Positions 770 through 63,296 of a stretch of DNA of 64,000 nt are shown here, one piece after another (position 1 is the first letter of the stretch; each line of letters opens with the position of its first letter). The DNA comes from an uncultured Fibrobacterota bacterium (GTDB lineage: Bacteria; Fibrobacterota; Chitinivibrionia; Chitinivibrionales; FEN-1185). The notes below the pieces were generated by a model. The model ran no database searches. It saw only the letters and a program-made list of their open reading frames with translations, and was not told the origin of the DNA. The DNA lies in assembly GCA_963729895.1 (NCBI GenBank), contig CAVSQB010000011.1, forward strand, positions 27,441-91,440. The letters run 5' to 3'. The position numbers and the translations under genes are program-made.

Positions 770-3445
770 TCACAAGCCGCCCGCTCGTACCACCCTGATC
801 ACCTTTCCGGGCGTGAGCACGGTGTCCGGGTTTAGTTTGTTATCTTTGTAAAGGTTGTCGATCGGAACCCCGAATTCGGCCGCTATCCGCGTGAGGGTGT
901 CTCCATCCTTGACTTTGTAATAAATGACGTCGGCCTGCGAAGGAGGAACACCCGGATTCAACACGGTGTCGTGCGCCGCGGGGATGAGCAGGGTGTCGCC
1001 GGCATGGACGAGCAATACATCGGTAAGGTGATTCGCAGACATGAGTGAATCCACGCTCACGGAATACCGGAGCGAAATCCTGAAAACATCTTCTCCCGTT
1101 GCAACAACGTAGAGGAAACCCTTCGGTTTTTGCACCGCTGCAGCAGGGGGCTGTAAAGGGGCCGCCGGAGCGGAAGCCGCGACGGAATCGGTCCTTTTTG
1201 TCGCCTCGTTGCTTTCCCGGGCGGGCGCAAGGGGCGTTTGTGGGCCGGCCACCTGCGTGTCATTCTTGACAGTATCGGAAGAAACGGTTCGGACGGTGGT
1301 TGGGGGGAGCTGCAGCGTTTGGCCGATCTTGATATTCGGATGGGCCAAATTGAGGCCGTTGAGCGTTGCCAGCTCTTTGAGTGGAATATTGAATTTGCGC
1401 GAAATGGAAAACGGGGTTTCGCCGATTTCAACGACATGAGTTGGGCCCTGCGGCGCCTGCACAACCATGGGCACCTGCACAACCACGGGCACCTGGACAA
1501 CACCTTGAGGCGTCTGCACCACGACCGGTAACGTCTGCTGCGGCCCCGTCGCCGGCGCCTGTGCAAACACGGGCGGCGGGGTTGTTTCCACCTGCGGCTG
1601 CGGCCTGCTCACAACAAGGAGGCGGCCCGGACGCAGGAGGGCGTGGCCGGTAATATGGTTCCACCGGCAGAGCTGGGTAACCGACACATGGTAGTGCCGC
1701 GCGATTCTTCCAAGAAAGTCTCCGGAATGAACCCGGTAGCGGATTGACACGCCAGAGAACTCATAGTCCGGAAGGTCGAGCGCTTTGATCTCGGATTCCG
1801 GGGGCGGGGGATAGGCAACGCCCTGTGCAAGCGGGACGGCCGACACGGGGATAAAAAGATGATGCCCTGGTGTCAGGCGGGGCGCGGTAATCCGGTTGAT
1901 AGTGACGAGTGCATCTGACGGCACGTTGTACTGCCGCGCAAGGCTTTCAACATCGTCCCCCCGTTTGATTTCACACCGGTACCACCTGACCCGTTTCTCC
2001 GGTGGAAGCTGCGCAAGAAAGCCGTTCCACGACCTCTTGCGCCCTGCGGGCAAATACAGCAGGGCGCCCGTGTCGGGCGGGGTGCACCACCGAAGGATAT
2101 GGGGGTTCATTTTCTTAAGGGTGTCCCGGTCGACCGCGAGTCCGTCCGCAATGTCGTTCAGGCTGATGCAGTCGGCGGTGTGCACGGTATCGAGCGGGAG
2201 CGGGTCGATTGGCGGCATGGTAACGCCGAAGCATTTCGGGTTCTTTGCAATTGTCAATGCGGCGAGATAGCACGGAACGTAATTCTTCGTTTGTTTCGGC
2301 AGCCGCTTGAGATTCCAGTAGTCGTTAGTTTTGTTGCGGGCGATGCAATGAGATACGCCATTTTCACCGCAGTTATATGCCGCAAGCGCAAGGTGCCAGT
2401 GGCCGAAATCGCCGAATAGTTTCCGGAGATAGCCGATGGCGGCTTCGGTGGACCGGATCGGGTCGCGGCGCTCATCAACCCAAAAGCTCCTCTTGAGGCC
2501 GTAGATTTTCCCTGTGGAAGCAATGAATTGCCAGATGCCGGACGCGTTCGCGTACGAGTAGGCGAGCGGATTGAACCCGCTTTCGATGAGGGGAAGGTAC
2601 GCCAGGTCTTTCGGCAGCCCGCTGTCCGCGAACATTTTCTTCATGAGCGGCAGGTAATACAAGGCACGGCTGAACCACCGGTCCACCGTGTTTTCTCGGT
2701 TGTGAATGTAGAACGACAGCGCCCGCTGCACCCGCCGGTTCCACACCATAGGCACATCGTAGTCCAGGCCCTTCTGACAGGCGATTGCGGCAAGAGAAAT
2801 GCTGTCGGGCGGCAGCACGTTCATCGAATCTATGGAGCGCATCATCTGCCGCTGGAATACAGCCATGGCGATGTCTTCCGGCACCGCGTATGATGCCGGC
2901 ATTTGCTCTTTGTAAATTACCGCGATCTCGTCGAAATACCGGGACGAGGGGATCCGCTCGCTTCCGCCTTCGGCTCCCTGGTCGATGCTCTCTATTGCGC
3001 GCACTGCCTCCTTGAGGATCGAGTCTGCGGCCGGGAAGTTGCCGGCGTCGCAGTCGGATTTCGCTTCGTCAATGAGATCCGCCGGATTGCCGTATACCGT
3101 GTCTTCGTCGTCGGCTTCTGCGGTATCAACGGACGTTTCGGAATCGGATGTTGAGCTGGTGTCCGGCGCGGGGCATGCAACACGTACGCTGTCATGTGCG
3201 TGAAGCCCGGTATCGCCGGTCTGGTTCAGCGTGGAGAAAGTGCGGCGACCCGGCCCGCATCCCGCGGCCAGTGCCAGCACTGCGGCGACAATCAGAACCG
3301 GGAGGCAGGGAAGAGCACACGCTTTACTTAAAGTCAAAAACCGCACCTTCCGCTTTTTTGAGGAAAAATCGTGCGACGAATTCCGAACTTCGGTGCACCT
3401 CTCCGTGCCCTCGACAAACGGCAGGGGAGCGGAACAGCGAGGCAA
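770..3445 (-). CDS. mltD: MltD-like membrane-bound lytic murein transglycosylase lipoprotein (SLT domain plus five LysM repeats)
   Basis: 891-aa ORF with lipobox LALAAGC. SLT region ESGFNPLAYSYANASGIWQFIASTGKIYGL..LALAAYNCGENGV. Five LysM-like repeats, e.g. YRVHSGDFLGRIARHYHVSVTQLCRWNHI and YYKVKDGDTLTRIAAEFGVPIDNLYKDNKL. The exact start is uncertain. Confidence 0.85.
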   Translation of the reverse strand: MPRCSAPLPFVEGTERCTEVRNSSHDFSSKKRKVRFLTLSKACALPCLPVLIVAAVLALAAGCGPGRRTFSTLNQTGDTGLHAHDSVRVACPAPDTSSTSDSETSVDTAEADDEDTVYGNPADLIDEAKSDCDAGNFPAADSILKEAVRAIESIDQGAEGGSERIPSSRYFDEIAVIYKEQMPASYAVPEDIAMAVFQRQMMRSIDSMNVLPPDSISLAAIACQKGLDYDVPMVWNRRVQRALSFYIHNRENTVDRWFSRALYYLPLMKKMFADSGLPKDLAYLPLIESGFNPLAYSYANASGIWQFIASTGKIYGLKRSFWVDERRDPIRSTEAAIGYLRKLFGDFGHWHLALAAYNCGENGVSHCIARNKTNDYWNLKRLPKQTKNYVPCYLAALTIAKNPKCFGVTMPPIDPLPLDTVHTADCISLNDIADGLAVDRDTLKKMNPHILRWCTPPDTGALLYLPAGRKRSWNGFLAQLPPEKRVRWYRCEIKRGDDVESLARQYNVPSDALVTINRITAPRLTPGHHLFIPVSAVPLAQGVAYPPPPESEIKALDLPDYEFSGVSIRYRVHSGDFLGRIARHYHVSVTQLCRWNHITGHALLRPGRLLVVSRPQPQVETTPPPVFAQAPATGPQQTLPVVVQTPQGVVQVPVVVQVPMVVQAPQGPTHVVEIGETPFSISRKFNIPLKELATLNGLNLAHPNIKIGQTLQLPPTTVRTVSSDTVKNDTQVAGPQTPLAPARESNEATKRTDSVAASAPAAPLQPPAAAVQKPKGFLYVVATGEDVFRISLRYSVSVDSLMSANHLTDVLLVHAGDTLLIPAAHDTVLNPGVPPSQADVIYYKVKDGDTLTRIAAEFGVPIDNLYKDNKLNPDTVLTPGKVIRVVRAGGL
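1454..1507. repeat. Three imperfect tandem copies of an 18-nt unit inside the mltD linker
   Basis: cgcctgcacaaccatggg / cacctgcacaaccacggg / cacctggacaacaccttg. On the minus strand this encodes the VVQ(V/A)P low-complexity linker between LysM repeats. Confidence 0.6.
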
Positions 3446-5559: not shown

Positions 5560-6738
5560 ATGACTCGTTTCGGCCTCGATACCGTTGCAGCCGCTTTCCC
5601 GAGGGAACTCACGGGAAAACGGATCGGCCTGCTGTGTCACGCGGCGTCGATCACGTCGGCCTATGTTCACTGCATCGACGTATTCCGCAACTCCCCGTGC
5701 ACGCTCGCCTCCCTGTTCGGTCCTCAGCATGGCATGTTCGGCCAGACCCAGGACAACATGGTAGAGTGGCAGGGGTTCGTGCATCCGGTCCTTGGAATCC
5801 CGGTGTACAGTCTTTACGGGGAGAAAAGAAAACCGACGCTCGAAAGCCTTGCCGGGCTCGATGCGCTTGTGGTGGACCTGCAGGACGTGGGAGCGCGTCC
5901 CTACACCTATGTCTGGACTGTCAAGCTGTGCATGGAGGCCTGCGGCGAGGCGCGTCTTCCCGTGTGGCTGCTCGACAGGCCGAACCCGATTGCGGCCGTC
6001 GGGTTCGACGGACCGGTGCTCTCCGACGGGTTCCACTCGTTTGTCGGCGGTGCGCCGATTCCGCTTTGTCATAGAATGACGATGGGGGAAATAACCACGC
6101 TTGTCAAACGCCTGTATTATCCCGGCGCCGACCTTCACGTGGTGTGGATGGACGGGTGGTGGCGCAATTCCCTGTGGCGCGAAACGGGCCTGCCCTGGGT
6201 TCTTCCGTCTCCCAACATGCCGGCGTTCGAAACCGCTGTAATGTATCCGGGGCAGGTGCTGTTCGAGGCCACCAATGCGTCCGAGGGGAGAGGAACGACG
6301 CGCCCGTTTGAAATCGTGGGCGCGCCCTACCTGGACGCGGACGCGGTTATCGCGGAAGTAAACACGCTCGGCGTGCGCGGGTGTGTTCTGCGGCGGCACG
6401 ATTTTATCCCGACGTTCCAGAAATGGCAGGGGGAGTATTGCCGCGGCCTGCAGGTGCATGTGAGTGACCCGCGCGCGTACGAACCCGTGTTCACCACCGC
6501 GGCGCTCCTGGCGGCGATCCTCAAAACATCGGGTGGGAAATTCGCCTTTAAGCAGCCGCCGTACGAATACGAAGCGGTCCGCATGCCGTTCGATATTCTG
6601 TCGGGAGACGAACGCCTGCGTACAACGCTCGCGAGTGGCGGCAACCTGATTGCGGAAAAGGAATCCTGGCAGGCATCGTACGCGCCGTTCGAGGCCCGTT
6701 TTAGCGATGTCGCGCACTATCCCGAGGAACGCGAGTGA
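5560..6738 (+). CDS. namZ: DUF1343 / NamZ-type exo-beta-N-acetylmuramidase
   Basis: Family-typical blocks GKRIGLLCHAASITS, LFGPQHG, GIPVYSLYGE, LDALVVDLQDVGARPYTYVWT, LDRPNPI. Start moved to ATG 5560 (MTRFGLD) because the longer track ORF begins just downstream of repeat DNA and adds non-family-like residues. No signal peptide is visible. Confidence 0.8.
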   Translation: MTRFGLDTVAAAFPRELTGKRIGLLCHAASITSAYVHCIDVFRNSPCTLASLFGPQHGMFGQTQDNMVEWQGFVHPVLGIPVYSLYGEKRKPTLESLAGLDALVVDLQDVGARPYTYVWTVKLCMEACGEARLPVWLLDRPNPIAAVGFDGPVLSDGFHSFVGGAPIPLCHRMTMGEITTLVKRLYYPGADLHVVWMDGWWRNSLWRETGLPWVLPSPNMPAFETAVMYPGQVLFEATNASEGRGTTRPFEIVGAPYLDADAVIAEVNTLGVRGCVLRRHDFIPTFQKWQGEYCRGLQVHVSDPRAYEPVFTTAALLAAILKTSGGKFAFKQPPYEYEAVRMPFDILSGDERLRTTLASGGNLIAEKESWQASYAPFEARFSDVAHYPEERE

Positions 6739-7685
6739 TCGGATTCATTCTTGCCGCCGGCTTCGGCACGCGCCTGAGGCCCATTACTGACCATATTCCA
6801 AAGGCGCTTGTGCCGGTGTGCGGGGAACCTCTGCTCGGCCGCGCGATCGATTTCTTGCGAGCCCAGGGGATGGAACGAATTGCGGTGAACGCCCATCACC
6901 ACCCGGACCAGATGGAGGCGTTTCTCCATTCCGGGAAACAAGGATGCGCGTTCTTCCATGAAACCGGCCGCATCAGGGGTACGGGCGGCGCGCTCTATTT
7001 TGCAAAGGAGTTTCTCGCCTTGGACGACGCTTTCTGCGTTGCGAATGTGGACATTGTCGCGGCGGTCGACCTGCGAAAGCTCCGTGCCGCGTTTAGTGAT
7101 CTAAACTGCAGCGCGGGGTTGGTTGCCATACCTTGTGACAACGGAACGGTGTTGTACAATGCGCAATCCAAAGACTACATCGGGGCCCGGTCCGAAGCAT
7201 CGTCCGGCGTGTACGAACCCGGGGGAAGGGGCGCCGGCGCCGAGTTCCTCGGTATTGCGTTTTATAAAAGGGAAATGCTTGCCGTGCTTGACGAAGCGGA
7301 TTTCTCGGTCTTGCCGGTCTGGAAACGGATGCAGGGAACCGGCATGAGCGTGAAGATCGTCGAAACCCCTCCGGTGTACTGGAAGGACCTCGGCACGCCC
7401 TCCGGGCTTGCCGCGATCCATTTTGATGCGCTCGACGGAACGTGCGAAATGCGCGTCCCTCCCAATCTTGTTGTCGACAAAGAAGGAAAAAGGGCCTACC
7501 CGCGTTCGCTTGATCCCGCGATTGCCGCCCGGCTGGGCCCGTATTCGTGGGTGGACACGGACGTCATCCCGGCCACTGCAACGCTGTCGCGCACCGTGGT
7601 TTTCAAAGACGCGGCCATTTCGGAAGGCACGGTCCTGAAGAACGCCATCGTAACATCCTACGGAGTGATCCCGCTTGTCTCCTGA
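6735..7685 (+). CDS. murU: Sugar-phosphate nucleotidyltransferase, probable MurNAc-alpha-1-phosphate uridylyltransferase
   Basis: N-terminal motif ILAAGFGTRLRPITDHIPKALVPV. The GTG start overlaps the namZ stop (GTGA, 6735-6738). The MurU assignment rests on the fold plus the namZ/amgK context. Confidence 0.7.
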   Translation: MIGFILAAGFGTRLRPITDHIPKALVPVCGEPLLGRAIDFLRAQGMERIAVNAHHHPDQMEAFLHSGKQGCAFFHETGRIRGTGGALYFAKEFLALDDAFCVANVDIVAAVDLRKLRAAFSDLNCSAGLVAIPCDNGTVLYNAQSKDYIGARSEASSGVYEPGGRGAGAEFLGIAFYKREMLAVLDEADFSVLPVWKRMQGTGMSVKIVETPPVYWKDLGTPSGLAAIHFDALDGTCEMRVPPNLVVDKEGKRAYPRSLDPAIAARLGPYSWVDTDVIPATATLSRTVVFKDAAISEGTVLKNAIVTSYGVIPLVS

Positions 7686-8715
7686 AACCGTCCAATTGAC
7701 TCCTGCGCAGACGGGCTTTCTCAAGGAGACGGTCCCGGCATTCGACTCTTCCTGTTCCGTAACCTGCGCAGGCCGCGCGGGATCGGACCGAAGGTTTTTC
7801 CGGGTGCACGTGCCCGCAACCAAAGAATCGTTTGTGCTTGTCGCTTGGAACAGCGAGGACCACGACTGGAACAGGTTCATTTCGATCCAGCGCGATCTTG
7901 CCGTCCGCGTTCCGTTCCTGCCGCGCATTTTCGCTTACGACGACGGACACGGCCTCATCCTCGAAGAAGACTTGGGCGCCGTCACGCTCAAGAAGTTCTG
8001 CGGCCGGGCCAAGGCCGCGGAGGTGGCCGCGCAGTACCGTATGGTCATTGACGCCCTTGCCGTGTGGCAGCAGGTTGACCCCTCTGCATGCGCCGCTATT
8101 TCGTCGCGCGACATGGACCTCGATATGTTTCTGTGGGAAAGCGATTACTTTGTGACGCATTGTGTCAAGGAGTACTTCGGCCTCGACAAGCTGCTGCCGG
8201 CCGCATGGGAACGGGAGCGGGTGCGGATCGCGGCCCAGGCGGCGGGATTTCCCAGGGTGTGCATCCATCGTGATTTTCAATCGGAAAACATCCTTCTCCA
8301 CGGCGGTTCGGTCCGGTTCGTGGATTTCCAGGGTGCGCGCCGCGGTCCGGCCGGCTACGATGTGGGGTCGCTTCTGTACGATCCCTACGCGCCGAACCTT
8401 ACGCCCTCGCTCAGCAGACGCCTGTTTGAATATTATCTGTCAAGAGTGCCGTTCGAGGTGACGCCCCAGTCCTTCCGCCTGTGCTCCATTCAGCGGCTGA
8501 TGCAGGCGCTCGGCGCGTACGCAAACCTCTCCATTCACAAAGGGAAAGACTGGTACCGTGCCTACATACCGGTTGCCTTGAAGCGGCTTAAGAGAGTGAT
8601 CGGGCAGGGCGGCGATGTGCCGGCGCTTGCGGGGATTGTGGCGGGGTGCATACGGCAGGACGGAATAAAGAAGTCCTCACGGAGATGCCGGGAAATTCGG
8701 AGAAAAGAGGATTGA
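7675..8715 (+). CDS. amgK: Aminoglycoside-phosphotransferase-fold kinase, probable anomeric MurNAc/GlcNAc kinase
   Basis: Kinase motifs IHRDFQSENILL and VDFQGARRGPAGYDVGSLLYDPY. Overlaps murU by 11 nt. The TTG start at 7675 is uncertain. Confidence 0.7.
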   Translation: MSPETVQLTPAQTGFLKETVPAFDSSCSVTCAGRAGSDRRFFRVHVPATKESFVLVAWNSEDHDWNRFISIQRDLAVRVPFLPRIFAYDDGHGLILEEDLGAVTLKKFCGRAKAAEVAAQYRMVIDALAVWQQVDPSACAAISSRDMDLDMFLWESDYFVTHCVKEYFGLDKLLPAAWERERVRIAAQAAGFPRVCIHRDFQSENILLHGGSVRFVDFQGARRGPAGYDVGSLLYDPYAPNLTPSLSRRLFEYYLSRVPFEVTPQSFRLCSIQRLMQALGAYANLSIHKGKDWYRAYIPVALKRLKRVIGQGGDVPALAGIVAGCIRQDGIKKSSRRCREIRRKED

Positions 8716-8801
8716 CGTCATTGAAGAAAATGGAGTTGCTATTGTGGATAGGCCGAAGGAAATTCAGGTCGATTTATGACCACAAATCAAGAAATGCATA
8801 T

Positions 8802-8824
8802 GGATAGCTGTGCCGGGTGCGCCC
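8802..8824 (-). repeat. R1 family core motif (reverse orientation)
   Basis: ggatagctgtgccgggtgcgccc is the reverse complement of gggcgcacccggcacagctatcc. It matches 30767-30789 and 56638-56660 apart from one base. Confidence 0.7.
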
Positions 8825-9072
8825 AAGAAGGTCCCTTGATATTATCGAGTCTTCTGATGGGGCACCCTTCGAGTTCGGCTGTGCGGGTGAGATCGAGATA
8901 GCGTTGCGGGGTGGCTTTTGACAGTAACCAAACAGGTACGCCAAAAACTCTCGATAGGTGCAGGTTTTATCCTGAAGTGGACTGGTGCATTCGACTGTGC
9001 TTTTGAGCCATCTTGAATCTTATTAGCCATGCAAGAAATGATAAGGGCCAAAACAAACAAAGTACAAAAACC

Positions 9073-10377
9073 AGCCCTGTCCGGCTAAACCTCTTGACCA
9101 ATGGCTAATAGAATGATAATTGCACTGGAGCGGAGCGCAAAGAACGTAACCGCTCGTAATTGACCCGTAGTAATTCAATCAAGCTTTCAAAACCAAGCAG
9201 CCTTTCTCGGATAACCCGCAGTAATTCCAGCATGGTGAAGGCATACCGTGCTTGGAATTTTATAAACGACAACAGGAGATACAAGATCATGGCTATCCAC
9301 ACCTGTGTCATTACCGCGTTTTCGCTGGTCCCGTAGAACGTCTTTATCTTCAAGTGCTGCTTGATCCACTTGAAAAATGTTTCTATCTCCCATCTTCCCT
9401 TGTACAGTGCAGCAATTGTCGTTGCCGACAACGTGAAATTGTTCGTCAGAAAGACCAGGTTCTTGTTTAACTCCTTGTTGTAATACTGTATCAGTCGCAG
9501 CTTCTCCGGATATGCCTTGCTTTCGTAAAAATTCGACATTTCGACTTCCTGATCACGGATAATTCCGCGTCTTACGTTCGGTTCTTTGTGCTGTCCGACA
9601 AGATGATATGCCATGTTGGATTTTGCCAGGATCACGAATGTAACACCAGTCGTATGCAGTGAATGAAGCCAGCCAAAATCTGTGTAGCCTCGATCAATGG
9701 TGAGGATGCTGTCCGGCGGAAGCGCAGGAAAATCATATTCGGCATCTTTCACCACCCGAATGTCATGGACTTTCCCGTCCGTCATCCGGATAAACGACGG
9801 TAGGTAACCGTCATGGTCCAGAAGCATATGAAGTTTCAATCCACCTTTGCGCCTGCGATACCGTGCCCATGGAAACGATGACAGACATACGCTGATCAAG
9901 GTTGAATCATGCGTAAATACCGGAACCTTTACCCGAAAGTCATGACGAGGTGCCAATCGCTGGCATTTATCCAGAAACTGATAGAAAAGATCTTCAAACA
10001 TCTTGTATGGCCGGAGAGCGAGTGCATCTGCCAGTGTACTGCGGGCTACACTCGCAAGACCAATATGTTCCCACTTATCCGCATTGCTCTTCAGACACGC
10101 TTCTACATCCCGAAAGCTGACCAAATCCTTTACCAGCGAAAAGAGCAAAATCTGCATCTCCTGCCAGCAGGTCATGCTCTTTACGTACCTGTCTCCTTCG
10201 TACCGATTAACAATGCGCCAGAATCCCTTCCGATTCAACAGTTGCGTTATCTGATTGAATATTGTATTTCTTCTGTTCAAGGGCTGCCTCCTCTTTTTAA
10301 TCGTCAAAAACTAAACCTTCAACGATAAAAATAGGTTGGTAGCCCTTCTCTTGTTGTCAATTTAACCGGACACTACT
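9073..10377 (-). mobile_element. Intact IS4-family insertion sequence (about 1.3 kb) with an 11-bp target-site duplication
   Basis: Imperfect terminal inverted repeats: AGCCCTGTCCGGCTAAA at 9073 versus AGTAGTGTCCGGTTAAA (reverse complement ending at 10377). Identical direct repeat GTACAAAAACC at 9062-9072 and 10378-10388. Visibly more AT-rich than the flanking DNA. Confidence 0.8.
9105..10307 (-). CDS. IS4-family DDE transposase
   Basis: 400-aa ORF with the C-terminal YREK-type block ALYKGRWEIETFFKWIKQHLKIKTF and DDE-region blocks VFTHDSTLISV and LTIDRGYTDFGWL. Confidence 0.85.
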   Translation of the reverse strand: MTIKKRRQPLNRRNTIFNQITQLLNRKGFWRIVNRYEGDRYVKSMTCWQEMQILLFSLVKDLVSFRDVEACLKSNADKWEHIGLASVARSTLADALALRPYKMFEDLFYQFLDKCQRLAPRHDFRVKVPVFTHDSTLISVCLSSFPWARYRRRKGGLKLHMLLDHDGYLPSFIRMTDGKVHDIRVVKDAEYDFPALPPDSILTIDRGYTDFGWLHSLHTTGVTFVILAKSNMAYHLVGQHKEPNVRRGIIRDQEVEMSNFYESKAYPEKLRLIQYYNKELNKNLVFLTNNFTLSATTIAALYKGRWEIETFFKWIKQHLKIKTFYGTSENAVMTQVWIAMILYLLLSFIKFQARYAFTMLELLRVIRERLLGFESLIELLRVNYERLRSLRSAPVQLSFY

Positions 10378-10596
10378 GTACAAAAACCATAACTAAAATC
10401 CGCCTCAAAATGGAACCTTGTCCCGATTTGAATACATATCCTGCTGTCCAACCTGCCGTTATCAAAATAATACTTATTGCCAAAAGTCCTTCTAAGAGAA
10501 TGCTCAGAAACACCTACAATCGGAGTGTCACCCTATTTCGGCAAAATCAGGTGGTCAAGATCTGGTTGTTAGGACAAGGAGTGTTATCATGGTTAA

Positions 10597-11073
10597 GAAG
10601 AAGAATATTCCGGTCACGTGCTGATGGAAAACCGAAATGGGTTGTGTGTTGATATCGCCATTGCGCCAGCGACGGGGACAGCGGAACGGGATATGGCGCT
10701 TGAGCTGATAAAGCATGAACGCAGGCGCGGAAAACGCCGGATGAAGACGGTGGGTGCAGACAAAGGGTATCATGCAACCGAATTTATCAAGAGCCTGCGA
10801 CGCCTGCACGTGAAGCCTCACATTGCCGAGAAGGCCAACACTTCGCTTAAAGGGTTGGATGGAAGAACGACTCGGCATAAGGGATACAGCGTAAGTCAAA
10901 GGAAACGAAAACGGGTTGAAGAGATATTTGGGTGGATCAAGAGCGTCGGTGGCCTGCGGAAAACTCGGGTAAGAGGAATACGAATCAACCAGACTGTTGC
11001 CTACGTGGTTGCCGCAGCGTACAACTTGATACGCATGGTTAAGTTGATGCCGCAAACGGTGGGGGCAGCATGA
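10597..11073 (+). pseudogene. Remnant (C-terminal half) of an IS5/IS1182-type transposase gene
   Basis: GHVLMENRNGLCVDIAIAPATGTAERD..VGADKGYHATEFIKSL..RKRVEEIFGWIKSVGGLRKTRVRG. In-frame TAA at 10594-10596. No N-terminal half is present; upstream DNA is only faintly similar and crosses frames. Confidence 0.7.
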
Positions 11074-11522
11074 GAATGGCCTGGGAATCCGGGGAAATGC
11101 CTCGGAACGAGGCAGGTAAAACCTCTCTGACATATGTAAAGTTGAAGTTAGGTTCATAAAAAATCAACAAGAGCGCTTCTGTTAGGACTATTTCAACAAC
11201 CTGCTAGTACTATTTAATGTGCCGTCCCCATCGATTGGGTACGCGGTTGCAACCCGTTTGATTTTGTTGCCACCCTTGGCCTTGTTACTTTGTCAGAGAT
11301 TCGCGCTGCCGGACATAGGTGACAGGCTGACGCAGCAGTAAAGCCAACTATACTAATGGTATATTTGCGGAAAGTCAGAAGCTATAACTATTGGCGGGCA
11401 TGTAGAGTGATTGCCTGTTGTGCGGAAAGATGCGGTTTTGGCCTGAAGTTTGAAGCGAACGCGTTCCGAAAAGAATTTCGTGAGTGTCTGATTTGTCATT
11501 CGTTTCCGTATTGTACAAACCC

Positions 11523-13933: not shown

Positions 13934-14917
13934 ATGAAGAACCGACAAGACAACATTGCCGCGCTCGCTCTTAGCCTCATACTTATGTTTCATTGTCAAG
14001 CATTCTCGCAGCGTGTTGAAAAGTACTCAGTGTTTTTCGGCAGGTGCGCGGTCTACAACGATACCAATTCGTATATGGCCCTGCGCTCCTTTTCCCGCGC
14101 GGGAAGACCTTATTACCTCGTGGTAAATACCCGGGACCTCTTCACGCGGATTGTTGCGCAGGACAGCGGTCGTTGTGAGAGGGCTTCGCTTCGGGAGATG
14201 CGCCTGGAATTCAAAACCGCACCCTACGTGCTTGCTCTTGACAGTGCGGAAAACAGGTCGGCCCTTGTCCAGGATGCCGGGCTCACGCACGGCTCCGTGC
14301 GCCAGAAAGGCATCGATCTCACCGCGGACCTGTGCCCGTCCAAACTCCCGCTGGACAGAAAATTCTTTGCCGAGCTTATCGACCAGTTCCTGCCCGAGGA
14401 AAAGCCGATACCGATAGCGCTTTCGGTGACGGGCAACTGGATGAACGGCCATCAGGAAGATTTGCGCTGGCTGATAGGCCTTGCTAAGAAAGGCGATCTC
14501 GCCATCACGTGGATCAACCATTCATACAATCACCGGTGGTACGACAGTATTCCGGTTCAGGAAAACTTCCTTCTCAAAAAAGGGACAAACCTCGATCTCG
14601 AAGTGCTCAAGACCGAACAGAAAATGATGGAGTACGGTATCACGCCGTCGGTGTTTTTCCGGTTTCCGGGTCTTGTATCCGACAGCCTCGTGTTTGCAAA
14701 GATCACCGCCTACGGGCTGATCCCGGTCGGCACCGATGCATGGCTTGCCAAAAATCAATTGCCGAAAGACGGGTCGATCGTGCTCGTGCATGCAAACGGC
14801 AACGAGCCGTACGGCATACAGCGGTTTTTCAAGCTCATTCGGGAACACCGCGACAGCATTAGTGCGGGAAAATGGATGCTCTACGATCTGCGCGAGAGCA
14901 TTGCTTCCGAAAAATAG
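13934..14917 (+). CDS. Polysaccharide deacetylase (CE4/NodB-like) family protein, exported
   Basis: Signal peptide. CE4-like motif series IDLTADLCPS, NHSYNH (HxxxH), FRFPG (RxPxG), GTDAW, VLVHANG (LxH). Confidence 0.65.
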   Translation: MKNRQDNIAALALSLILMFHCQAFSQRVEKYSVFFGRCAVYNDTNSYMALRSFSRAGRPYYLVVNTRDLFTRIVAQDSGRCERASLREMRLEFKTAPYVLALDSAENRSALVQDAGLTHGSVRQKGIDLTADLCPSKLPLDRKFFAELIDQFLPEEKPIPIALSVTGNWMNGHQEDLRWLIGLAKKGDLAITWINHSYNHRWYDSIPVQENFLLKKGTNLDLEVLKTEQKMMEYGITPSVFFRFPGLVSDSLVFAKITAYGLIPVGTDAWLAKNQLPKDGSIVLVHANGNEPYGIQRFFKLIREHRDSISAGKWMLYDLRESIASEK

Positions 14918-14927
14918 CGGAAACCCA

Positions 14928-16289
14928 ATGGGGGAGTTCGTGCGGTTTGCATCTATTGCCACGTCTCTGGCGGTGGCGCTCCTTTGTGTAACGGTCCGAG
15001 GCGCAAAGACCGACTCTGCATCCGTCCCCTTGTTCCGCCTGGACCTCACCCTTGCCGACGTTCCCGCTAATTCGGGCAGCAGTGCGTATTGGCCCACAAT
15101 GGCCCAGTCCAAATCTCTTGCCCTGTCGTTTAGCGAGGCCACCGGCGTCTGCATGCAACTGGCCACCCAGGGAATCCGAAGCCCCTTAGCCCGGCTGGGC
15201 GCGGTCACCGGGTTGGAACTGGGCAGGATTTTCCTCGATAATTACCTTCCGTTCGGCGTCACGTGGATGCACGAGGAATTCCACCGCGCCGTGCTTTCCA
15301 ACAGGGAAATTTCTTCCTATGACGGTATATACGATTTCAACCCGGACATTACGCAACTCAACGTGTACCATGTTTCCGACGAGGCCCTGAAAAACCTCAA
15401 GGCGGAACATCCGGAGGAATTGGTGCGCTGTGAAGCAGCCGGGTACGAAGCCCAGGTAGATCTTGCCGAGGCGCTGTTGCAGGATGGGATGATGCACGGC
15501 TCGCCCTTCATCGAACCGTCCGCACTCTATTCGTTGTTCTCGATGTCGTTTTACATGTGGTTCAACACCACGTCCGAGGCCGATGAGGAAACCCGCGAAT
15601 TCAACGCGAAAGAAACCACAATTGACCAGCGCGATATTGTGGGGTGGGATTTTTCGGCATGGACCTACGACCTGCACCGCCCAGACGAACCCTATGCGGC
15701 GCGCGGTGTTCATCCGGGCGGCGTCGGCATCAACCGGTACATTCTCTGGTCGCAGTTGACTTCCGCAGAACAAAGCTACCTGAGGCTCCAGGCGGCGTTA
15801 TCGTTAGCCAACTTTGTAAGGCCGCAACTCTACGGTGCCGCGCCGTGGCACGCCGGCCTGTTCGGCGAGGACGTGGAATTTACTGCCGGCCTCAGGCACT
15901 ATCTTACGCCGTTCGGCTACGAGATTGGGGCAATCACCGTCATGAGAAAACAGGATGCCGGTCTTGTCGCTTCAGTCAACGTTTACGGCAACGGTCACCT
16001 GGCGCTGCCCGGGATCGACTGTACGCTTCTGAACCTTCCCCTTGGCGGTCCAGCCTCCTTCCTGTCCTGGTCGCCGAGGCTTGCACTCTGGCTGCAGCCC
16101 AAGGGCCAGCGGTTGGACAGCGAGGCGGCGCAGGCGGGCATGCTCGCCTCGGAGCGGCTGGATGTGTGGCTGTCAAGCGCTTCGAGCGCGTACGCGGAGA
16201 TTGAGGCAAAATCGGGCGGCTGGGTCGCGGGAACGGTGTCGCTGGGGCCGGCGCTTGCACTACGGGTGGGAAGCGTGCTTGCGTTTTAA
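14928..16289 (+). CDS. Exported hypothetical protein, possible outer-membrane beta-barrel
   Basis: ATG at 14928, 11 nt after the deacetylase stop (the track ORF begins earlier, inside the upstream gene). Signal peptide IATSLAVALLCVTVRGA. No recognisable domain. The C-terminus ...LRVGSVLAF ends in Phe, which is only weak barrel evidence. Confidence 0.5.
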   Translation: MGEFVRFASIATSLAVALLCVTVRGAKTDSASVPLFRLDLTLADVPANSGSSAYWPTMAQSKSLALSFSEATGVCMQLATQGIRSPLARLGAVTGLELGRIFLDNYLPFGVTWMHEEFHRAVLSNREISSYDGIYDFNPDITQLNVYHVSDEALKNLKAEHPEELVRCEAAGYEAQVDLAEALLQDGMMHGSPFIEPSALYSLFSMSFYMWFNTTSEADEETREFNAKETTIDQRDIVGWDFSAWTYDLHRPDEPYAARGVHPGGVGINRYILWSQLTSAEQSYLRLQAALSLANFVRPQLYGAAPWHAGLFGEDVEFTAGLRHYLTPFGYEIGAITVMRKQDAGLVASVNVYGNGHLALPGIDCTLLNLPLGGPASFLSWSPRLALWLQPKGQRLDSEAAQAGMLASERLDVWLSSASSAYAEIEAKSGGWVAGTVSLGPALALRVGSVLAF

Positions 16290-16420
16290 GTTGAGGCACG
16301 CACAACATCCAATTTGGTTTAAACACGCGCAAAAAGCAAATACGGGCGAAAAGGATTTAGGGGGCGAGTAGCCAGTGGTGAAGCAATAATGGAATTCTTA
16401 GATGTCCTCTCAAAGAAGGT

Positions 16421-16496
16421 TGGTGAGCCGCCAAGGATTCGAACCCCGATCTCCGACAGAAAGAATGTCGTGCTTTGCCACTTAAGCTAGCAGCTC
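16421..16496 (-). tRNA. tRNA-Lys (anticodon CUU) with an atypical anticodon loop (U37) and tandem G-U pairs in the T stem
   Basis: Reverse complement GAGCTGC TA GCTT AAGTGGCA AAGC A CGACA TTCTTTC TGTCG GAGAT CGGGG TTCGAAT CCTTG GCGGCTC A CCA folds as a cloverleaf. The 7-nt loop UUCUUUC gives anticodon CUU with a pyrimidine at position 37. Pairs 50:64 and 51:63 are G-U. CCA is encoded. Confidence 0.75.
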
Positions 16497-16601
16497 AAAG
16501 ACCATGAAATATACGACGCTACGCGGTGCTCGGGCCATTATATTATTTTAATGCGATTGTATCATAAGGGATTTTCGCGGCAATAAGGAATTTCACACTG
16601 C

Positions 16602-17567
16602 ATGACCGTTCCAGATTTCGCCTTTCGGCTTGCCCAAATCAAGAAATTCGGCACCAACTCGTTTTCGACGCTTCTGTTGTACGACGATGTGACCTCGTAC
16701 ACGCTGAAGTCAACCGAGGGGTTTGTCGGTTACAGGGGCGCGGGCAAAATGCTCGTGGTATTCGGCGAGCCGATTTGCGACCCGAAGAAGTATCGCGATG
16801 CGGTGACGGAGTTCAACGCATTCTGCAAGGAACATGGAAAACAGTTTATCTGCATCTGCTGCGGAGAAGAGTTCAAGAACGCGGTTGAAGACATGGACTT
16901 CAGTTCCGTCCGCATCGGCGAGGATTTCATTTTTGAAACGGCCCTGTATGCACCGAAGGGCGACAAGGGGAAAATGGTGCGGCTCGCTAGAAACCACGCC
17001 TTGCGGATAGGCGCAGTTGTCAAGGAATACGACCACAGCAGAGGGCCGGATCCCGCATTGGAAAAAGTTTTCGGCGAAATATCGATGCGCTGGCTTCGAA
17101 AAACAAACCGGTTCAAGGCGCATATCCTGGGTCTCAACCTGTTCGATCACCGGGAGCTCAAGCGGTATTTCTACGCCGAGGTGGGCGGAACACCCGTTGC
17201 GTTCATTGCCTGCCTTCCCATTTTCGGCAGGGACGGCTATCTTCTGGAAGATGCGATCCGCAATCCGGATGCGCCGTACGGCGTGATAGAGCTGATCACG
17301 CTCGCCATCATCGACGAAATGAAGAAGCATGGCGTCAAGATGGTCACTTTCGGAATTTCTCCAAAGCTCGACGTAAGTACGCTGTCCGGGCCTTCCCGCT
17401 TTGTCGCCAACGTGGGAATGTGGCTTGCAAACAAGGCCTTCAACCTTCACAACCTGTATCATTTCCGGAAGAAGTTCCACACCGCTGCCGCGGAACCGTC
17501 GTATCTGCTCAAGTATCCCCGGGGCCTGGGTCTGATTGATCTTGCGAGAATTCTTACTTCGTTCTGA
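16602..17567 (+). CDS. Stand-alone DUF2156 protein (C-terminal domain type of MprF/LysX aminoacyl-phosphatidylglycerol synthases)
   Basis: 321 aa. Blocks typical of the family: GFVGYRGAGKMLVVFGEPICDP, RLARNHALRIGAVVKEY, ISMRWLRKTN..ILGLNLFD, GYLLEDAIRNPDAPYGVIELITLAIIDEMKKHGVKMVTFGISP, FRKKFH..PSYLL. No flippase or transmembrane domain. Confidence 0.7.
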   Translation: MTVPDFAFRLAQIKKFGTNSFSTLLLYDDVTSYTLKSTEGFVGYRGAGKMLVVFGEPICDPKKYRDAVTEFNAFCKEHGKQFICICCGEEFKNAVEDMDFSSVRIGEDFIFETALYAPKGDKGKMVRLARNHALRIGAVVKEYDHSRGPDPALEKVFGEISMRWLRKTNRFKAHILGLNLFDHRELKRYFYAEVGGTPVAFIACLPIFGRDGYLLEDAIRNPDAPYGVIELITLAIIDEMKKHGVKMVTFGISPKLDVSTLSGPSRFVANVGMWLANKAFNLHNLYHFRKKFHTAAAEPSYLLKYPRGLGLIDLARILTSF

Positions 17568-17762
17568 CAAGAAGAGTCCGGGTTGGGCCGATTCATCCTT
17601 CCCGCTACCCGCGGCAATTGCTCCGGAGCCAAAGCGAGAACCATGTACTTCCGGGGATCGTTAATTGTACAATGAAGACAAACAGGGTTTTGTATCTTTG
17701 GCGGGCACAAAAACGTGAACGGCTGCTCTTTTCGTTTTCCCGGGCAAAGGAGGTCCGATCAC

Positions 17763-19277
17763 ATGAACGCAAAGATTTGCAATTTCCGTCTTGGTAGTTC
17801 AGCAGTTCTTCTTCTGGCCGCATTTCTTGTTTCCGGCGCCCAACCCGTTTCCGTTTCCGGCACCGTCACCAACCCCGATCTCATGCCTGTCCGCGGCGCG
17901 CTGGTCGCGCTTGACAAAGCCGGGCTGTCGGCAACAACCGACGCGAGCGGCGCGTTTTCGATTGCGGGAAATGCGGGTGTGGTGTCGGCAGTGTCACAGG
18001 CCGGTGTCAATTCAATATCAATGAGTGGAAACCTTGTTAGATTCTCATTATCGAAAGATGAACGGATCTCTCTTTCGGTTTTCAACTGCAAGGGAGAGGC
18101 AACAAGATCCGTTTCCGAGAAGGTATATACATCCGGGAGTCATTCGATTGAGATGGGGAAGTATGATGCCGCTGGATTGAAAATTGTCCGAATGGACATC
18201 GGCTCGTTTTCATACACTTTCAGAGTTATTGATATTCAGGGAAATACGGCCCAATCATTCATCAATAAACAAAATCAGAATGTGCCCTTGTCAAAAACGT
18301 CTGCCGGCGTTGATTCTCTGAAGGTAACAGCTGCACGCTACAACCAGCTTATGCAAGGCCTCGGCTCCTACACCCAGTCGAACCTGAAGCTCGTGATCAC
18401 GTCGTCCATCGACACCGGCATCGGCGCGAGCCTGCACGGCTGCCGGCCGTTTCCCGACGACAATCCGTGGAACACGCCGGTCGACAAGGACTCGGTGGAC
18501 CCGCTGTCCGACAAGATTATCGCGGGCATAGGGCTCAACGTGCCGTTGCACCCGGACTTCTGCGGCCAGTGGAACGGCGGGGTGTGCGGCATCCCGTATG
18601 TGGTGGTGACCTCCAAGACGCCCAAAGTCAGCGTGACCTTCGACTACGCCGACGAAAGCGATCCCGGCCCGTATCCGATTCCGGCTGATGCACCCATCGA
18701 GGGCGGGCCCGCCTCAACGGGCGACCGGCACATTCTTATGCTTGACAGAGACAACTGGATCCTGTACGAGCTGTACGCGGCGTATCCGCCCGGAACGGGC
18801 TGGACCGCAGGCTCGGGCGCGATCTTCAATCTGGATTCCGACTCTCTGCGGCCGGCAGGCTGGACGTCCGCCGACGCTGCCGGGCTGCCTATCTTTCCCG
18901 GCCTGGTGCGCTACGATGAAGTGGTCGAACAGAAACAAATTCTGCATGCGGTCCGGTTCACGGTTGTCAACTCGCGGAACGCCTATATTCCTCCGGCAAC
19001 GCATTACGCAAGCAGCAAGACCGCAGACACGCTCCCGCCCATGGGCATGCGCGTGCGGCTCAAGGCGAGCGTCGATATTTCGGGCTATTCCGCGAACATG
19101 CAGGTGATCCTCACGGCGCTCAAGACCTACGGCATGATCGTGGCCGACAACGGCTCCAACTGGTATGTATCCGGCGCGCCGGACTCAAGGTTGAACGACG
19201 ACGAATTGAATACCCTCAAGCAGATAACGGGAAGTGATTTTGAGGTTGTCAAGATGAGGGGAATTGTGACGCAATAA
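17763..19277 (+). CDS. Secreted protein: carboxypeptidase-regulatory-like module, beta-sandwich, and a conserved C-terminal domain of unknown function
   Basis: RBS ggaggt 9 nt upstream of ATG 17763. Signal peptide. VSGTVTNPDLMPVRGALVALD..TDASGAFSI. C-terminal blocks GDRHILMLDRDNWILYELY, RPAGWTSADAAGLPIFPGLVRYDEV, HAVRFT, YGMIVADNGSNWYVSG. Confidence 0.65.
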   Translation: MNAKICNFRLGSSAVLLLAAFLVSGAQPVSVSGTVTNPDLMPVRGALVALDKAGLSATTDASGAFSIAGNAGVVSAVSQAGVNSISMSGNLVRFSLSKDERISLSVFNCKGEATRSVSEKVYTSGSHSIEMGKYDAAGLKIVRMDIGSFSYTFRVIDIQGNTAQSFINKQNQNVPLSKTSAGVDSLKVTAARYNQLMQGLGSYTQSNLKLVITSSIDTGIGASLHGCRPFPDDNPWNTPVDKDSVDPLSDKIIAGIGLNVPLHPDFCGQWNGGVCGIPYVVVTSKTPKVSVTFDYADESDPGPYPIPADAPIEGGPASTGDRHILMLDRDNWILYELYAAYPPGTGWTAGSGAIFNLDSDSLRPAGWTSADAAGLPIFPGLVRYDEVVEQKQILHAVRFTVVNSRNAYIPPATHYASSKTADTLPPMGMRVRLKASVDISGYSANMQVILTALKTYGMIVADNGSNWYVSGAPDSRLNDDELNTLKQITGSDFEVVKMRGIVTQ

Positions 19278-61420: not shown

Positions 61421-61504
61421 GCCGAGGTGGCGGAATTGGTAGACGCAGTGGACTCAAAATCCACCGAGAGCAATCTCATGAGAGTTCGATTCTCTCCTTC
61501 GGCA
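61421..61504 (+). tRNA. tRNA-Leu (anticodon CAA), class II with a long variable arm
   Basis: GCCGAGG TG GCGG AATTGGTAGA CGC A GTGGA CTCAAAA TCCAC CGAGAGCAATCTCAT GAGAG TTCGATT CTCTC CTTCGGC A. CCA is not encoded. Confidence 0.9.
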
Positions 61505-61750: not shown

Positions 61751-63296
61751 TTACCAACCGATCGCGACCGCTATCCACTGGACATTGTTAATGCCCATAA
61801 ACGCCTGATGGCCGCCGTCGTCGTCATAGGCAAACCCGTAGCAGTAATTGTTTATCGACCGGCGGTGGCACCATCTTGAAAAATAATTGCACGGCGATGC
61901 TTGGTAGTAACTGGCGGAGTCATTGACGCGCCAGTTTGCAAACTGAGTGCCCTGGGGAAGCATTCCGACGTGCCTGTTGTAGGCGGCGCAATAATCGGGC
62001 GAAGCGCCCAAGTTCCCCGCACACGCCAAAACGTTCCAGGCAGTCTCTTTGCCGGGCGCGCCCGGGTTGTGGGCTATCACCGAATCCTGGTATCTTTCGA
62101 AATAATTTGCAAACACGCCGCCCGTGCTGTAATAGTTTGTAGCCATCATCTGGGGTGAATAGATATTGGCAAAATTCACTTGGGCAAGAGGGGTGAATTC
62201 CTTCGGCACCTCGTTCAGGAATTCATCAAATTTTGCCTGGCGTGTTTGAAAGAACGTTTCATAGTCGTCGCCCATTATAGTGTCGATACCGGTAGAAGTA
62301 TGGAGCCGGAAGGCTATTGGAAGCCTCCATCCGTCCACGCGGGTGGAATTACCGTTGAACATGTTGCCGTTCCAGTTAACTTCAAGAAAATCAAAATATC
62401 TGCTGTTGGAGTCGGTGGGATCAATATAGATGTAGAATCTTTCGCTGGCGATCGGCGTTGCATTCTGCTGGGAAAGCGGGGTCTTGTTCGCACCCCAGCA
62501 AATCTTGCTGTCCGGCCATGCGCCGTTGGTCCTGTTCAGGATAACAAACTGACCGTTCTTCGGATAGGTGCTCGTGTCACCCCAGAAGGCGGCGATTGAG
62601 GCCTTGTCGCCGGTCCATGTAGTGGTCTTCGTCAACACGAAATCGTAGTGTCCCACGAGCGTGTCAACCGGCGTGACTCCTATCGAGTAACCCGGCTCGG
62701 TTGCGCGCAGAGTGTCCACCATGGCTGCGAGTTTTTCCAGCCTGGCCTGGAATTCGGGAACGTTTTGAGCCATAGTTGCGCCCTGAACACGTGAAAGCGG
62801 CCGGAATTTTAAAACGGTTGTCGCGCCGTTGACGGTCACGCGAAGCAGATAGTACTGGGACGAAATTCCGCGTGTGTCAACCGATACTGAGTAATTTCCC
62901 CTGGCCTGGGCGCCGTCCATCACGTCCCGCACGTACCTGCCGGCAAGATCATACATGCTCATTTTCACCCAGGCTTTGCCCGGAAGAACGCTGAACAGTA
63001 CTCTGCCACCCGCGTACACCGGCTTTGAATAGACATCCAGCCCTATCTTCTTTGATTACGTTGACCGGAGGGCAAGCCCCTGTTCCCAGTTGGTAATTTC
63101 CGCCGGCGTCCGTTGTGACCAGGTACGGCGCTGGCCCATACCCGTTATCATACGTTGCCTGGCCCAGCCTGACCACCGTATGGGTCAGGGGATTCCCGTT
63201 CGGATCCGTAACCCTTCCGCAAATGTTGACAGTCTGGCAAAGAACAGACCCGGCGAAAAACGCCACCATCAGACACACCGCTGCTGATCTTTTCAT
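61751..63296 (-). pseudogene. GH64-like beta-1,3-glucanase with N-terminal signal peptide, carboxypeptidase-regulatory-like module and internal beta-sandwich; frameshifted
   Basis: ORF 62949-63296: signal peptide plus CGRVTDPNGNPLTHTVVRL..TDAGGNYQLG. ORF 61751-63019: VYAGGRVLFSV..MSMYDLAGRYV, then GH64-like blocks ERFYIYID, YFDFLEVNWNGNMFNGNSTRVDGWRLPIAFRL, CAAYNRHV, YGFAYDDDGGHQAF. The frames switch within about 63036-63058; removing one A from the atcaaagaag run joins them. Confidence 0.65.

Follow-up and report, generated by a model that had tools for sequence, protein, structure and literature searches.

We analysed a 64,000-nucleotide stretch of contig CAVSQB010000011.1 (positions 27,441 to 91,440 of the forward strand) from an uncultured Fibrobacterota bacterium; this whole stretch is called the window below, and positions refer to it unless another locus is named. 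Our subject is a pair of divergently oriented genes within it, a tRNA-Lys(CUU) gene and a gene for a stand-alone DUF2156 protein. A first-pass annotation, made from the letters of the sequence, had suggested that the two might form a module of donor tRNA and transferase for lipid or envelope aminoacylation. The pair consists of the following features.

16421..16496, minus strand: tRNA-Lys(CUU), 73 nucleotides (nt) plus an encoded CCA, found by ARAGORN and Rfam RF00005
16602..17567, plus strand: gene for a stand-alone DUF2156 protein (PF09924), predicted to be an aminoacyl-tRNA transferase of the MprF synthase-domain type; 321 amino acids, isoelectric point 9.05
16962..17006, plus strand: codons for residues 121-135 of this protein, DKGKMVRLARNHALR, a basic helix that lies between the GNAT halves of the AlphaFold2 model

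The two genes lie on opposite strands and are separated by a spacer of 105 nt (16497-16601), which is AT-rich, as had been noted, at 41% GC against 56% for the window.

The tRNA and the enzyme

ARAGORN reports two tRNAs in the 64-kb window, the Lys(ctt) gene at 16421-16496 (minus strand) and a tRNA-Leu(CAA), and Rfam RF00005 scores the former at 47.6 bits against a gathering score of 29. We assigned its positions by hand in standard numbering from the sequence, and the RNA reads GAGCUGC-UA-GCUU-AAGUGGCA-AAGC-A-CGACA-UUCUUUC-UGUCG-GAGAU-CGGGG-UUCGAAU-CCUUG-GCGGCUC-A-CCA. The fold is the clean cloverleaf with an encoded CCA that the first-pass annotation had described: the acceptor stem runs from G1-C72 to C7-G66, with U5·G68 included, the D arm pairs GCUU with AAGC around an 8-nt loop, the anticodon stem is CGACA/UGUCG, the variable region is GAGAU, the T loop is UUCGAAU and the discriminator base is A73. 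The tertiary positions are canonical (U8, A14, A15/U48, G18G19, U33, G53-U54-U55-C56, A58 and C61).

The tRNA is near-perfect except at position 37 and in the T stem. Its anticodon loop, U32 U33 C34 U35 U36 U37 C38, has a uridine at the position where a bacterial elongator tRNA-Lys has an adenosine modified to N6-threonylcarbamoyladenosine (t6A). Its T stem (C49-G65, G50·U64, G51·U63, G52-C62, G53-C61) contains two consecutive G·U wobble pairs, at 50:64 and 51:63. Both peculiarities had been pointed out before, and both hold under standard numbering. The other tRNA of the window, tRNA-Leu(CAA) at 61421-61504, served as a control: it has the loop CUCAAAA, with a normal A37, and a long variable arm, and U37 is therefore not a genome-wide oddity. 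The determinants of lysine identity are the anticodon and A73 (PMC9976931). The identity set (anticodon N34-U35-U36 plus A73) is present here, and C34, U35, U36 and A73 are invariant in the nine loci that we aligned (see below). Because anticodon and A73 are intact, the tRNA should, as judged from its sequence, still be charged with lysine.

The open reading frame (ORF) at 16602-17567 matches PF09924 (LPG_synthase_C) from end to end, covering profile positions 3-297 of 298 with an E-value of 2.3e-35 and 122.5 bits against a cut-off of 27.5. The assignment to DUF2156 made at first sight is thus borne out, as is the statement that the protein carries neither a flippase nor a fused lysyl-tRNA synthetase (LysRS). 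No transmembrane helix is predicted in its 321 residues, for which the highest 19-residue Kyte-Doolittle mean is 1.47. The MprF flippase domain is not present: the NCBIfam model bifunc_MprF (NF033480) gives 82 bits against a threshold of 600 and aligns over profile positions 527-813 only. A LysRS fusion is likewise not present, with 49 bits against 742 for the LysX model (NF002821) and no aminoacyl-tRNA synthetase domain in Pfam. To both models the protein aligns by its catalytic part only. When we compared the profile of the enzyme family with PDB sequences, the best match was ErdS (9w9e, 2.6e-19); LysPGS of B. licheniformis (4v36) matched at 4.7e-17, and rhizobial and Pseudomonas MprF and AlaPGS matched as well.

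The AlphaFold2 model of the enzyme (predicted local distance difference test score 84.9, predicted template-modelling score 0.83) consists of two GNAT halves and agrees with this assignment. In Foldseek, it has template-modelling scores of 0.75-0.80 to the DUF2156 domain crystals 5vrv, 4v36, 4v35 and 6lv0 and to the full-length rhizobial MprF 7duw, and lower scores to Fem transferases (FemX), the tRNA-dependent peptide synthase 9wqx and other tRNA-dependent GNAT enzymes. In the model, the basic helix of residues 121-135 sits between the strands of residues 101-112 and 138-143; its residues K124, R127 and N131 are invariant in the enzyme family. A positively charged helix between the GNAT halves binds the tRNA's acceptor stem in aminoacyl-phosphatidylglycerol synthases, in Fem/FemX and in ErdS (PMC6103681; PMC7334510), and by analogy helix 121-135 is a candidate for this alpha(+) helix. 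The match to PF09924 is full, the fold is that of a tandem GNAT and the basic helix is in place; going by sequence and model, the enzyme is therefore an MprF-type aminoacyl-tRNA transferase domain that is complete and stands free.

A profile search of 1.84 billion representatives returned 3710 DUF2156 relatives, many of them stand-alone and many 320-350 amino acids long, and a second, word-indexed homologue search added few proteins. The close homologues are all of about 321 amino acids and come from metagenome-assembled genomes of Chitinivibrionales/Fibrobacterota and from peat, fen and similar metagenomes.

Conservation of the pair and of position 37

We compared the context of the two genes in the 64-kb window with that in stretches of at most 21 kb from relatives. 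Loci found to be the same were merged (L001=L002=L003=L011=L016; L004=L005=L014; L006=L007=L015). This left 12 distinct loci with an enzyme that shares at least 65% identity with that of the window: the window itself, L001, L004, L006, L009, L010, L012, L013, L017, L018, L021 and L022. In each of the 12, the DUF2156 gene is preceded by the tRNA in divergent orientation, so that the adjacency first seen in the window proves to be conserved. L012 has about 91% nucleotide identity to the window, the contig of L022 ends inside the tRNA, and L009 comes from an indel-ridden long-read assembly. Assemblies with the pair include GCA_035315105.1 (DATFYJ01), PLWQ01 (fen_1185) and CAVWBU01 (MFD03726.bin.1.27). 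The spacer was measured in nine loci: it is 99-105 nt long in seven of them, L006 has one of 153 nt and L018 one of 241 nt.

The tRNA-DUF2156 junction is unbroken in every one of the 12 loci and is the only invariant adjacency. On the tRNA side, L010 has a different gene and L006 lacks the gene for a 327-amino-acid protein found upstream in the window; the downstream genes also differ in L006, a downstream gene for a 520-amino-acid protein is missing from L004, and L021 and L022 have other downstream genes. A scan of metagenomes for the tRNA with any base allowed at position 37 gave five matches, all with T37 and all adjoining a DUF2156 gene, and located no tRNA copy away from DUF2156. An exact search for the tRNA in GTDB genomes, among which the window species is not a representative, gave no match.

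In L009 the tRNA at first appeared to be lacking (5800-7173 of that locus). This was an artefact: the region has homopolymer-type indels, a frameshifted protein (P0022) and extra bases in the tRNA. The indels hide the pair from gene callers and from ARAGORN, and an apparent absence in such assemblies can therefore be false.

Outside this group, ARAGORN found no tRNA near the stand-alone homologues of L008 and L023 (55-56% identity), L019 and L020 (42-45%) and L024 (27%, from Rhabdochlamydiaceae), and a permissive Rfam scan of L008, L019 and L020 found no hidden or degenerate tRNA. Because homologues at this distance stand without a tRNA, the pairing is, from the loci compared, a trait of one clade and not of the DUF2156 family as a whole.

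Position 37 could be read in all 12 linked loci and is U in each; G50·U64 and G51·U63 are both present in 11 of 11 complete copies. Across the nine aligned loci, 68 of the 73 tRNA positions are invariant, including U37, both G·U pairs, the anticodon and A73, and the changes fall in the D loop, at T-loop positions 57 and 59 and at position 22. The T loop accordingly occurs as UUCGAAU, UUCAAAU and UUCGAGU. The most divergent copy, at 1-73 of L021, has the anticodon loop CUCUUUA, that is, C32, U37 and A38, together with the pair C13-G22. In other words, positions 32/38 shift from U/C to C/A, the usual bases, and the D-stem pair 13-22 varies among U-A, U·G and C-G, in L021 by a compensatory change, while U37 and the G·U pairs stay. 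Read one base later, the L021 loop would present UUU followed by A, likewise a lysine anticodon. A covariation test on the tRNA was uninformative, the stems being invariant except for pair 13-22.

The tRNA is conserved far above its surroundings. In relatives, the DUF2156 third codon positions, at 46-52% identity to the window, are saturated and the spacer is 39-68% identical, yet their tRNA copies match that of the window at 93-97% identity. In L012, the segment corresponding to 16417-16550 of the window (the tRNA and the block upstream of it) is 99.3% identical, and the flanking genes are 90-93% identical. A sequencing error, which the first-pass annotation had considered as a source of U37, is ruled out, as is a pseudogene: the same U37 is found in 12 independent assemblies, in a tRNA that is strongly conserved and whose neighbouring positions 32 and 38 vary. 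The encoded 3' CCA has a different history. It occurs in the window (16421-16423) and in L012 (3794-3796) only, and because the other complete copies carry other bases after A73, it is, by this comparison, recent and outside the conserved design of the tRNA.

A proposed lysine donor and its alternatives

Position 37 of tRNAs has been described as 'always a purine', the modification of which lends stability to the first pair of codon and anticodon if this is A:U (PMC5372745). The one exception that has been studied well, the non-proteinogenic tRNA-Gly of staphylococci, has C37; it binds EF-Tu poorly, does not bind the ribosome and provides glycine for Fem transferases (PMC6103715; PMC7826273). 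The first-pass annotation had named these tRNAs as a precedent for weakened EF-Tu binding, and the parallel is closer than it had supposed, extending to the pyrimidine at 37 (PMC6103715).

We calculated the affinity for EF-Tu using the additive T-stem model of Schrader and Uhlenbeck (PMC3239215), in which outliers are cut at 1.3 kcal/mol from the class mean. For the window tRNA, the sum is -10.1 + 0.0 (C49-G65) + 1.4 (G50·U64) + 0.8 (G51·U63) = -7.9 kcal/mol, and the value for G50·U64 is the most destabilising entry of their table (PMC3239215). The class mean for Lys(CUU) is given as -9.4 or -9.5 kcal/mol in the same paper (PMC3239215). The calculated value is therefore about 1.5 kcal/mol weaker than the class mean, past the cut of 1.3, and the T stem is the fifth to seventh weakest among 210 modelled stems. 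Weak-side outliers numbered 19 of 5849 tRNAs in the published survey, the staphylococcal tRNA among them (PMC3239215). The claim that EF-Tu binding is weakened is thus backed by a published model, as a calculated value.

On balance we lean slightly towards reading the locus as a two-gene cassette, made up of a non-ribosomal lysine donor tRNA and a divergent DUF2156 transferase of the MprF type. The module proposed by the first-pass annotation is in this sense partly supported: those of its suggested checks that were run all turned out in its favour, its structural side stands, its pairing belongs to one clade as far as the sequences go, and for its functional core we infer the following course. 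The housekeeping LysRS would charge the tRNA, whose identity set (the anticodon, especially U35 and U36, and A73) is intact. With U at position 37, no t6A could be formed and stacking on the weak U36-A1 pair would be poor, while the T stem would offer EF-Tu the weakest or a near-weakest pair at each of the three contact positions. Because of U37 and the weak T stem, neither the delivery of this Lys-tRNA to the ribosome nor its use there would be efficient. The enzyme, soluble or peripheral, would bind the acceptor stem by its basic inter-GNAT helix and hand the lysyl group on to an acceptor with a hydroxyl or an amino group. The likeliest acceptor, by family resemblance to MprF/LysPGS, would be a membrane glycerolipid such as phosphatidylglycerol. 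A lysine tRNA agrees with the commonest reaction of the DUF2156 family, the lysine transfer of LysPGS. Both genes would be transcribed divergently from a common control region of about 100 nt.

Several points weigh against a dedicated donor. The characterised MprF enzymes use ordinary aminoacyl-tRNA (PMC9976931). The sigma of the Lys(CUU) class, 0.86, is the second-broadest among the classes in the excerpt of Table 1 (PMC3239215), and some stems with G50·U64 are non-additive and bind EF-Tu more tightly than predicted (PMC3239215). The T loop is the canonical UUCGAAU, unlike that of the staphylococcal tRNAs, and the tertiary-pair positions look normal. AAG is the major lysine codon, with 253 AAG against 146 AAA (63%) in 13 ORFs, which would make a CUU isoacceptor of use to translation. 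As for the linkage, all linked loci belong to one clade, which makes it effectively a single evolutionary event that was retained; much of the surrounding gene order is retained too, and at five loci stand-alone DUF2156 genes of 27-56% identity have no adjacent tRNA.

The same points can be drawn together into a different explanation, namely an ordinary housekeeping tRNA-Lys(CUU) that decodes AAG and tolerates U37 and a weak T stem, its place beside DUF2156 being inherited gene order in a young clade. The share of AAG among lysine codons, the canonical cloverleaf, T loop, D loop and identity elements, and the largely syntenic neighbour genes all agree with it. In addition, 32 of 44 EF-Tu outliers were the sole gene copy of their class, and several of those tested were not true outliers (PMC3239215). 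We nevertheless regard this explanation as unlikely. A pyrimidine at 37 abolishes both t6A and the purine stacking that ANN-reading tRNAs need, at a position said always to hold a purine (PMC5372745) and for which the known exception is non-proteinogenic (PMC6103715). Moreover, U37 is constant while 32 and 38 vary, the pair is intact where both flanks are rearranged, and the metagenome scan found no copy of the tRNA apart from DUF2156.

Two further explanations concern what the tRNA is for. If it is a dedicated donor, the acceptor might be something other than a lipid: a protein, a natural product or an intermediate of peptidoglycan or glycans, as with the soluble VlmA, Fem and streptothricin-type peptide synthases. 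The enzyme has no transmembrane segment and the locus no flippase partner, the genes that recur beside it encode secreted or outer-membrane-like proteins and one beta-helix protein, and the lower-scoring fold matches include FemX and a tRNA-dependent peptide synthase (9wqx). We judge a non-lipid acceptor quite unlikely, since the nearest relatives by both sequence and fold are all lipid-modifying DUF2156 proteins (ErdS, LysPGS, AlaPGS and MprF), there is precedent for free-standing DUF2156 proteins acting on lipids (ErgS, PMC8913301), and no neighbour is invariably linked. It seems very unlikely that the tRNA-like gene is no donor at all and acts, unrelated to DUF2156 catalysis, as a regulator, an integration site for mobile elements or a decoy in defence or anti-defence. 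Such roles have some precedent in the B. cereus pseudo-tRNA tRNAOther, which lies beside an island and, without a part in translation, influences the cell wall and resistance to antibiotics (PMC3399842), and an insertion sequence (IS) transposase lies 6 kb off. Against them stand the intact acceptor stem, A73 and lysine anticodon, which argue for aminoacylation. Furthermore, there is no integrase or repeat at the 3' side of the tRNA, its neighbours are ordinary conserved genes, searches with PADLOC and against viral contigs gave no match, and neither a T-box nor another Rfam element was found in the spacer.

The proposed cassette resembles the staphylococcal tRNA-Gly(UCC) NP1-3, which work with FmhB, FemA and FemB: aminoacylation identity is kept, position 37 is a pyrimidine, T-stem pairs weaken EF-Tu binding (here as calculated), and a paralogous-looking tRNA would serve a GNAT-fold aminoacyl-tRNA transferase (PMC6103715; PMC7826273; PMC3239215). 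It differs in using lysine and not glycine and DUF2156 and not Fem, in belonging to the Fibrobacterota, which are diderm, in a T loop that keeps UUC where the staphylococcal loops have UGC or UGU, and in the physical pairing of the tRNA gene with the enzyme gene. We know of no tRNA-transferase gene pairing in Staphylococcus.

With MprF, LysPGS, AlaPGS and LysX the enzyme shares PF09924, the tandem GNAT and the basic helix, and lysine is the amino acid most commonly transferred in this group. Unlike MprF and LysX, it has no flippase membrane domain and no fused LysRS, and the sequence identity is only 16-21%; the characterised MprFs, moreover, draw on the normal translational pool of aminoacyl-tRNA (PMC9976931). 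As a stand-alone DUF2156 protein it is like ErgS, a proven fungal lipid aminoacyl transferase that diverts aminoacyl-tRNA from a separate synthetase onto lipid (PMC8913301). ErgS (the ergosteryl-glycine synthase of Ascomycota) and ErdS (AspRS-DUF2156), the latter the best PDB sequence match to the enzyme family, differ in being eukaryotic, in having a sterol acceptor, in transferring glycine or aspartate and in having no reported dedicated tRNA.

Similarly, tRNAOther of B. cereus is a tRNA-like gene that influences the cell envelope from outside translation (PMC3399842), as the tRNA described here may do. It has a non-lysine anticodon, is degenerate, flanks an island and has no transferase, unlike the near-perfect tRNA-Lys of the window. 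LysRS reportedly lysylates tRNAOther (Ataide et al. 2005). The weak-EF-Tu outliers listed by Schrader and Uhlenbeck in 2011 share with our tRNA a calculated value more than 1.3 kcal/mol weaker than the class mean, and those authors regarded outlier tRNAs as candidate amino-acid donors outside translation (PMC3239215). No linked enzyme and no anomaly at position 37 was reported for their outliers, and their data set did not include the uncultured lineages that carry the present tRNA.

We found no report in the literature of a tRNA dedicated to a DUF2156 enzyme or encoded beside one, which is an absence from the searchable literature and not proof. The chances seem to us even that this is the first tRNA to have evolved for, and to be genetically packaged with, a DUF2156/MprF-type transferase. 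It would keep its LysRS identity and avoid translation by U37 and an EF-Tu-averse T stem, so that the enzyme would have a supply of Lys-tRNA to itself, and the combination of pyrimidine-37 and weak T stem would be a convergent, general and searchable signature of ribosome avoidance. How enzymes of the MprF type divert aminoacyl-tRNA from the abundant EF-Tu is called an open question in a 2023 review, the tRNAs that they use binding EF-Tu and MprF equally well (PMC9976931). If the proposal is true, an EF-Tu-averse donor dedicated to the enzyme and encoded next to it would resolve this competition in one natural way. Non-proteinogenic tRNAs would then reach past Staphylococcus and Fem, to one more family of enzymes, another amino acid and a distantly related phylum of diderms. 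They could be searched for by a pyrimidine at 37, the weakest pairs at 49-65, 50-64 and 51-63, and an adjacent transferase, and the pair of tRNA and enzyme is compact enough to be transferred to a model host, where the idea could be tested directly.

The spacer and the surrounding genes

The spacer contains two conserved blocks and a possible promoter.

16507..16516, no strand assigned: conserved block AAATATACGA (on the strand of the tRNA, TCGTATATTT), just upstream of the tRNA 5' end
16533..16550, no strand assigned: conserved block GGCCATTATATTATTTTA, at a constant distance from the tRNA across the compared loci
16537..16565, minus strand: putative sigma-70-like promoter for the tRNA (ATGATA, 17-nt spacer, TATAAT; 10 of 12 matches in a consensus scan)

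Both blocks hold their distance to the tRNA even where the spacer is 153 or 241 nt long. Specifically, AAATATACGA recurs with single-base variants at the same distance in the window, L001, L004, L006, L010, L017 and L018, and it may be a leader or a second -10-like element. The TATAAT falls within the block at 16533-16550, and the -10 ends about 40 nt upstream of the mature tRNA 5' end; as a consensus match, 16537-16565 is a putative sigma-70-like promoter of the tRNA. Co-regulation of the tRNA and DUF2156 through this common short control region is plausible. The Rfam scan of the spacer detected neither a T-box nor any other Rfam element.

Two genes upstream of the pair recur in most loci. 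The gene at 13934-14917 encodes a 327-amino-acid protein with a signal-peptide-like N-terminus, and that at 14736-16289 a protein of about 430-450 amino acids that ends in Phe, like outer-membrane barrels. One or both are missing in L006 and L010, and they are thus not obligatory partners. When these two and the downstream gene at 17715-19277 were compared with Pfam, NCBIfam and PDB sequences, a CarboxypepD_reg domain was the only match; the two upstream genes had none in Pfam, NCBIfam or PADLOC, and the 327-amino-acid protein also had none among PDB sequences. None of the three is invariably linked to the pair. A defence system was excluded, as neither the enzyme nor its neighbours had a PADLOC match. 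A phage or mobile origin was excluded as well: the viral-contig search gave no match and no integrase lies next to the tRNA.

Further from the pair, 8716-11520 is occupied by a 200-amino-acid ORF (10555-11157) and, on the minus strand, by an IS-type transposase (9105-10307; DDE_Tnp_1 plus DUF4372). In L012 (about 91% identical) it is replaced by a 1.9-kb stretch, 8439-10308, with an ORF at 8559-10226, and the segment looks like a recent insertion or replacement. At 61751-63296 (minus strand), ORFs in different frames overlap, one at 62949-63296 with a signal-peptide-like start and one at 61751-63019; they may be a single gene for a secreted protein, split by a frameshift or an assembly error. 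In L024, a transfer-messenger RNA gene (1534-1923) lies 3 kb upstream of the distant DUF2156 gene, probably by coincidence. Finally, 770-3445 of the window (minus strand) encodes an 891-amino-acid SLT lytic transglycosylase with five LysM repeats, a large peptidoglycan-binding murein hydrolase.

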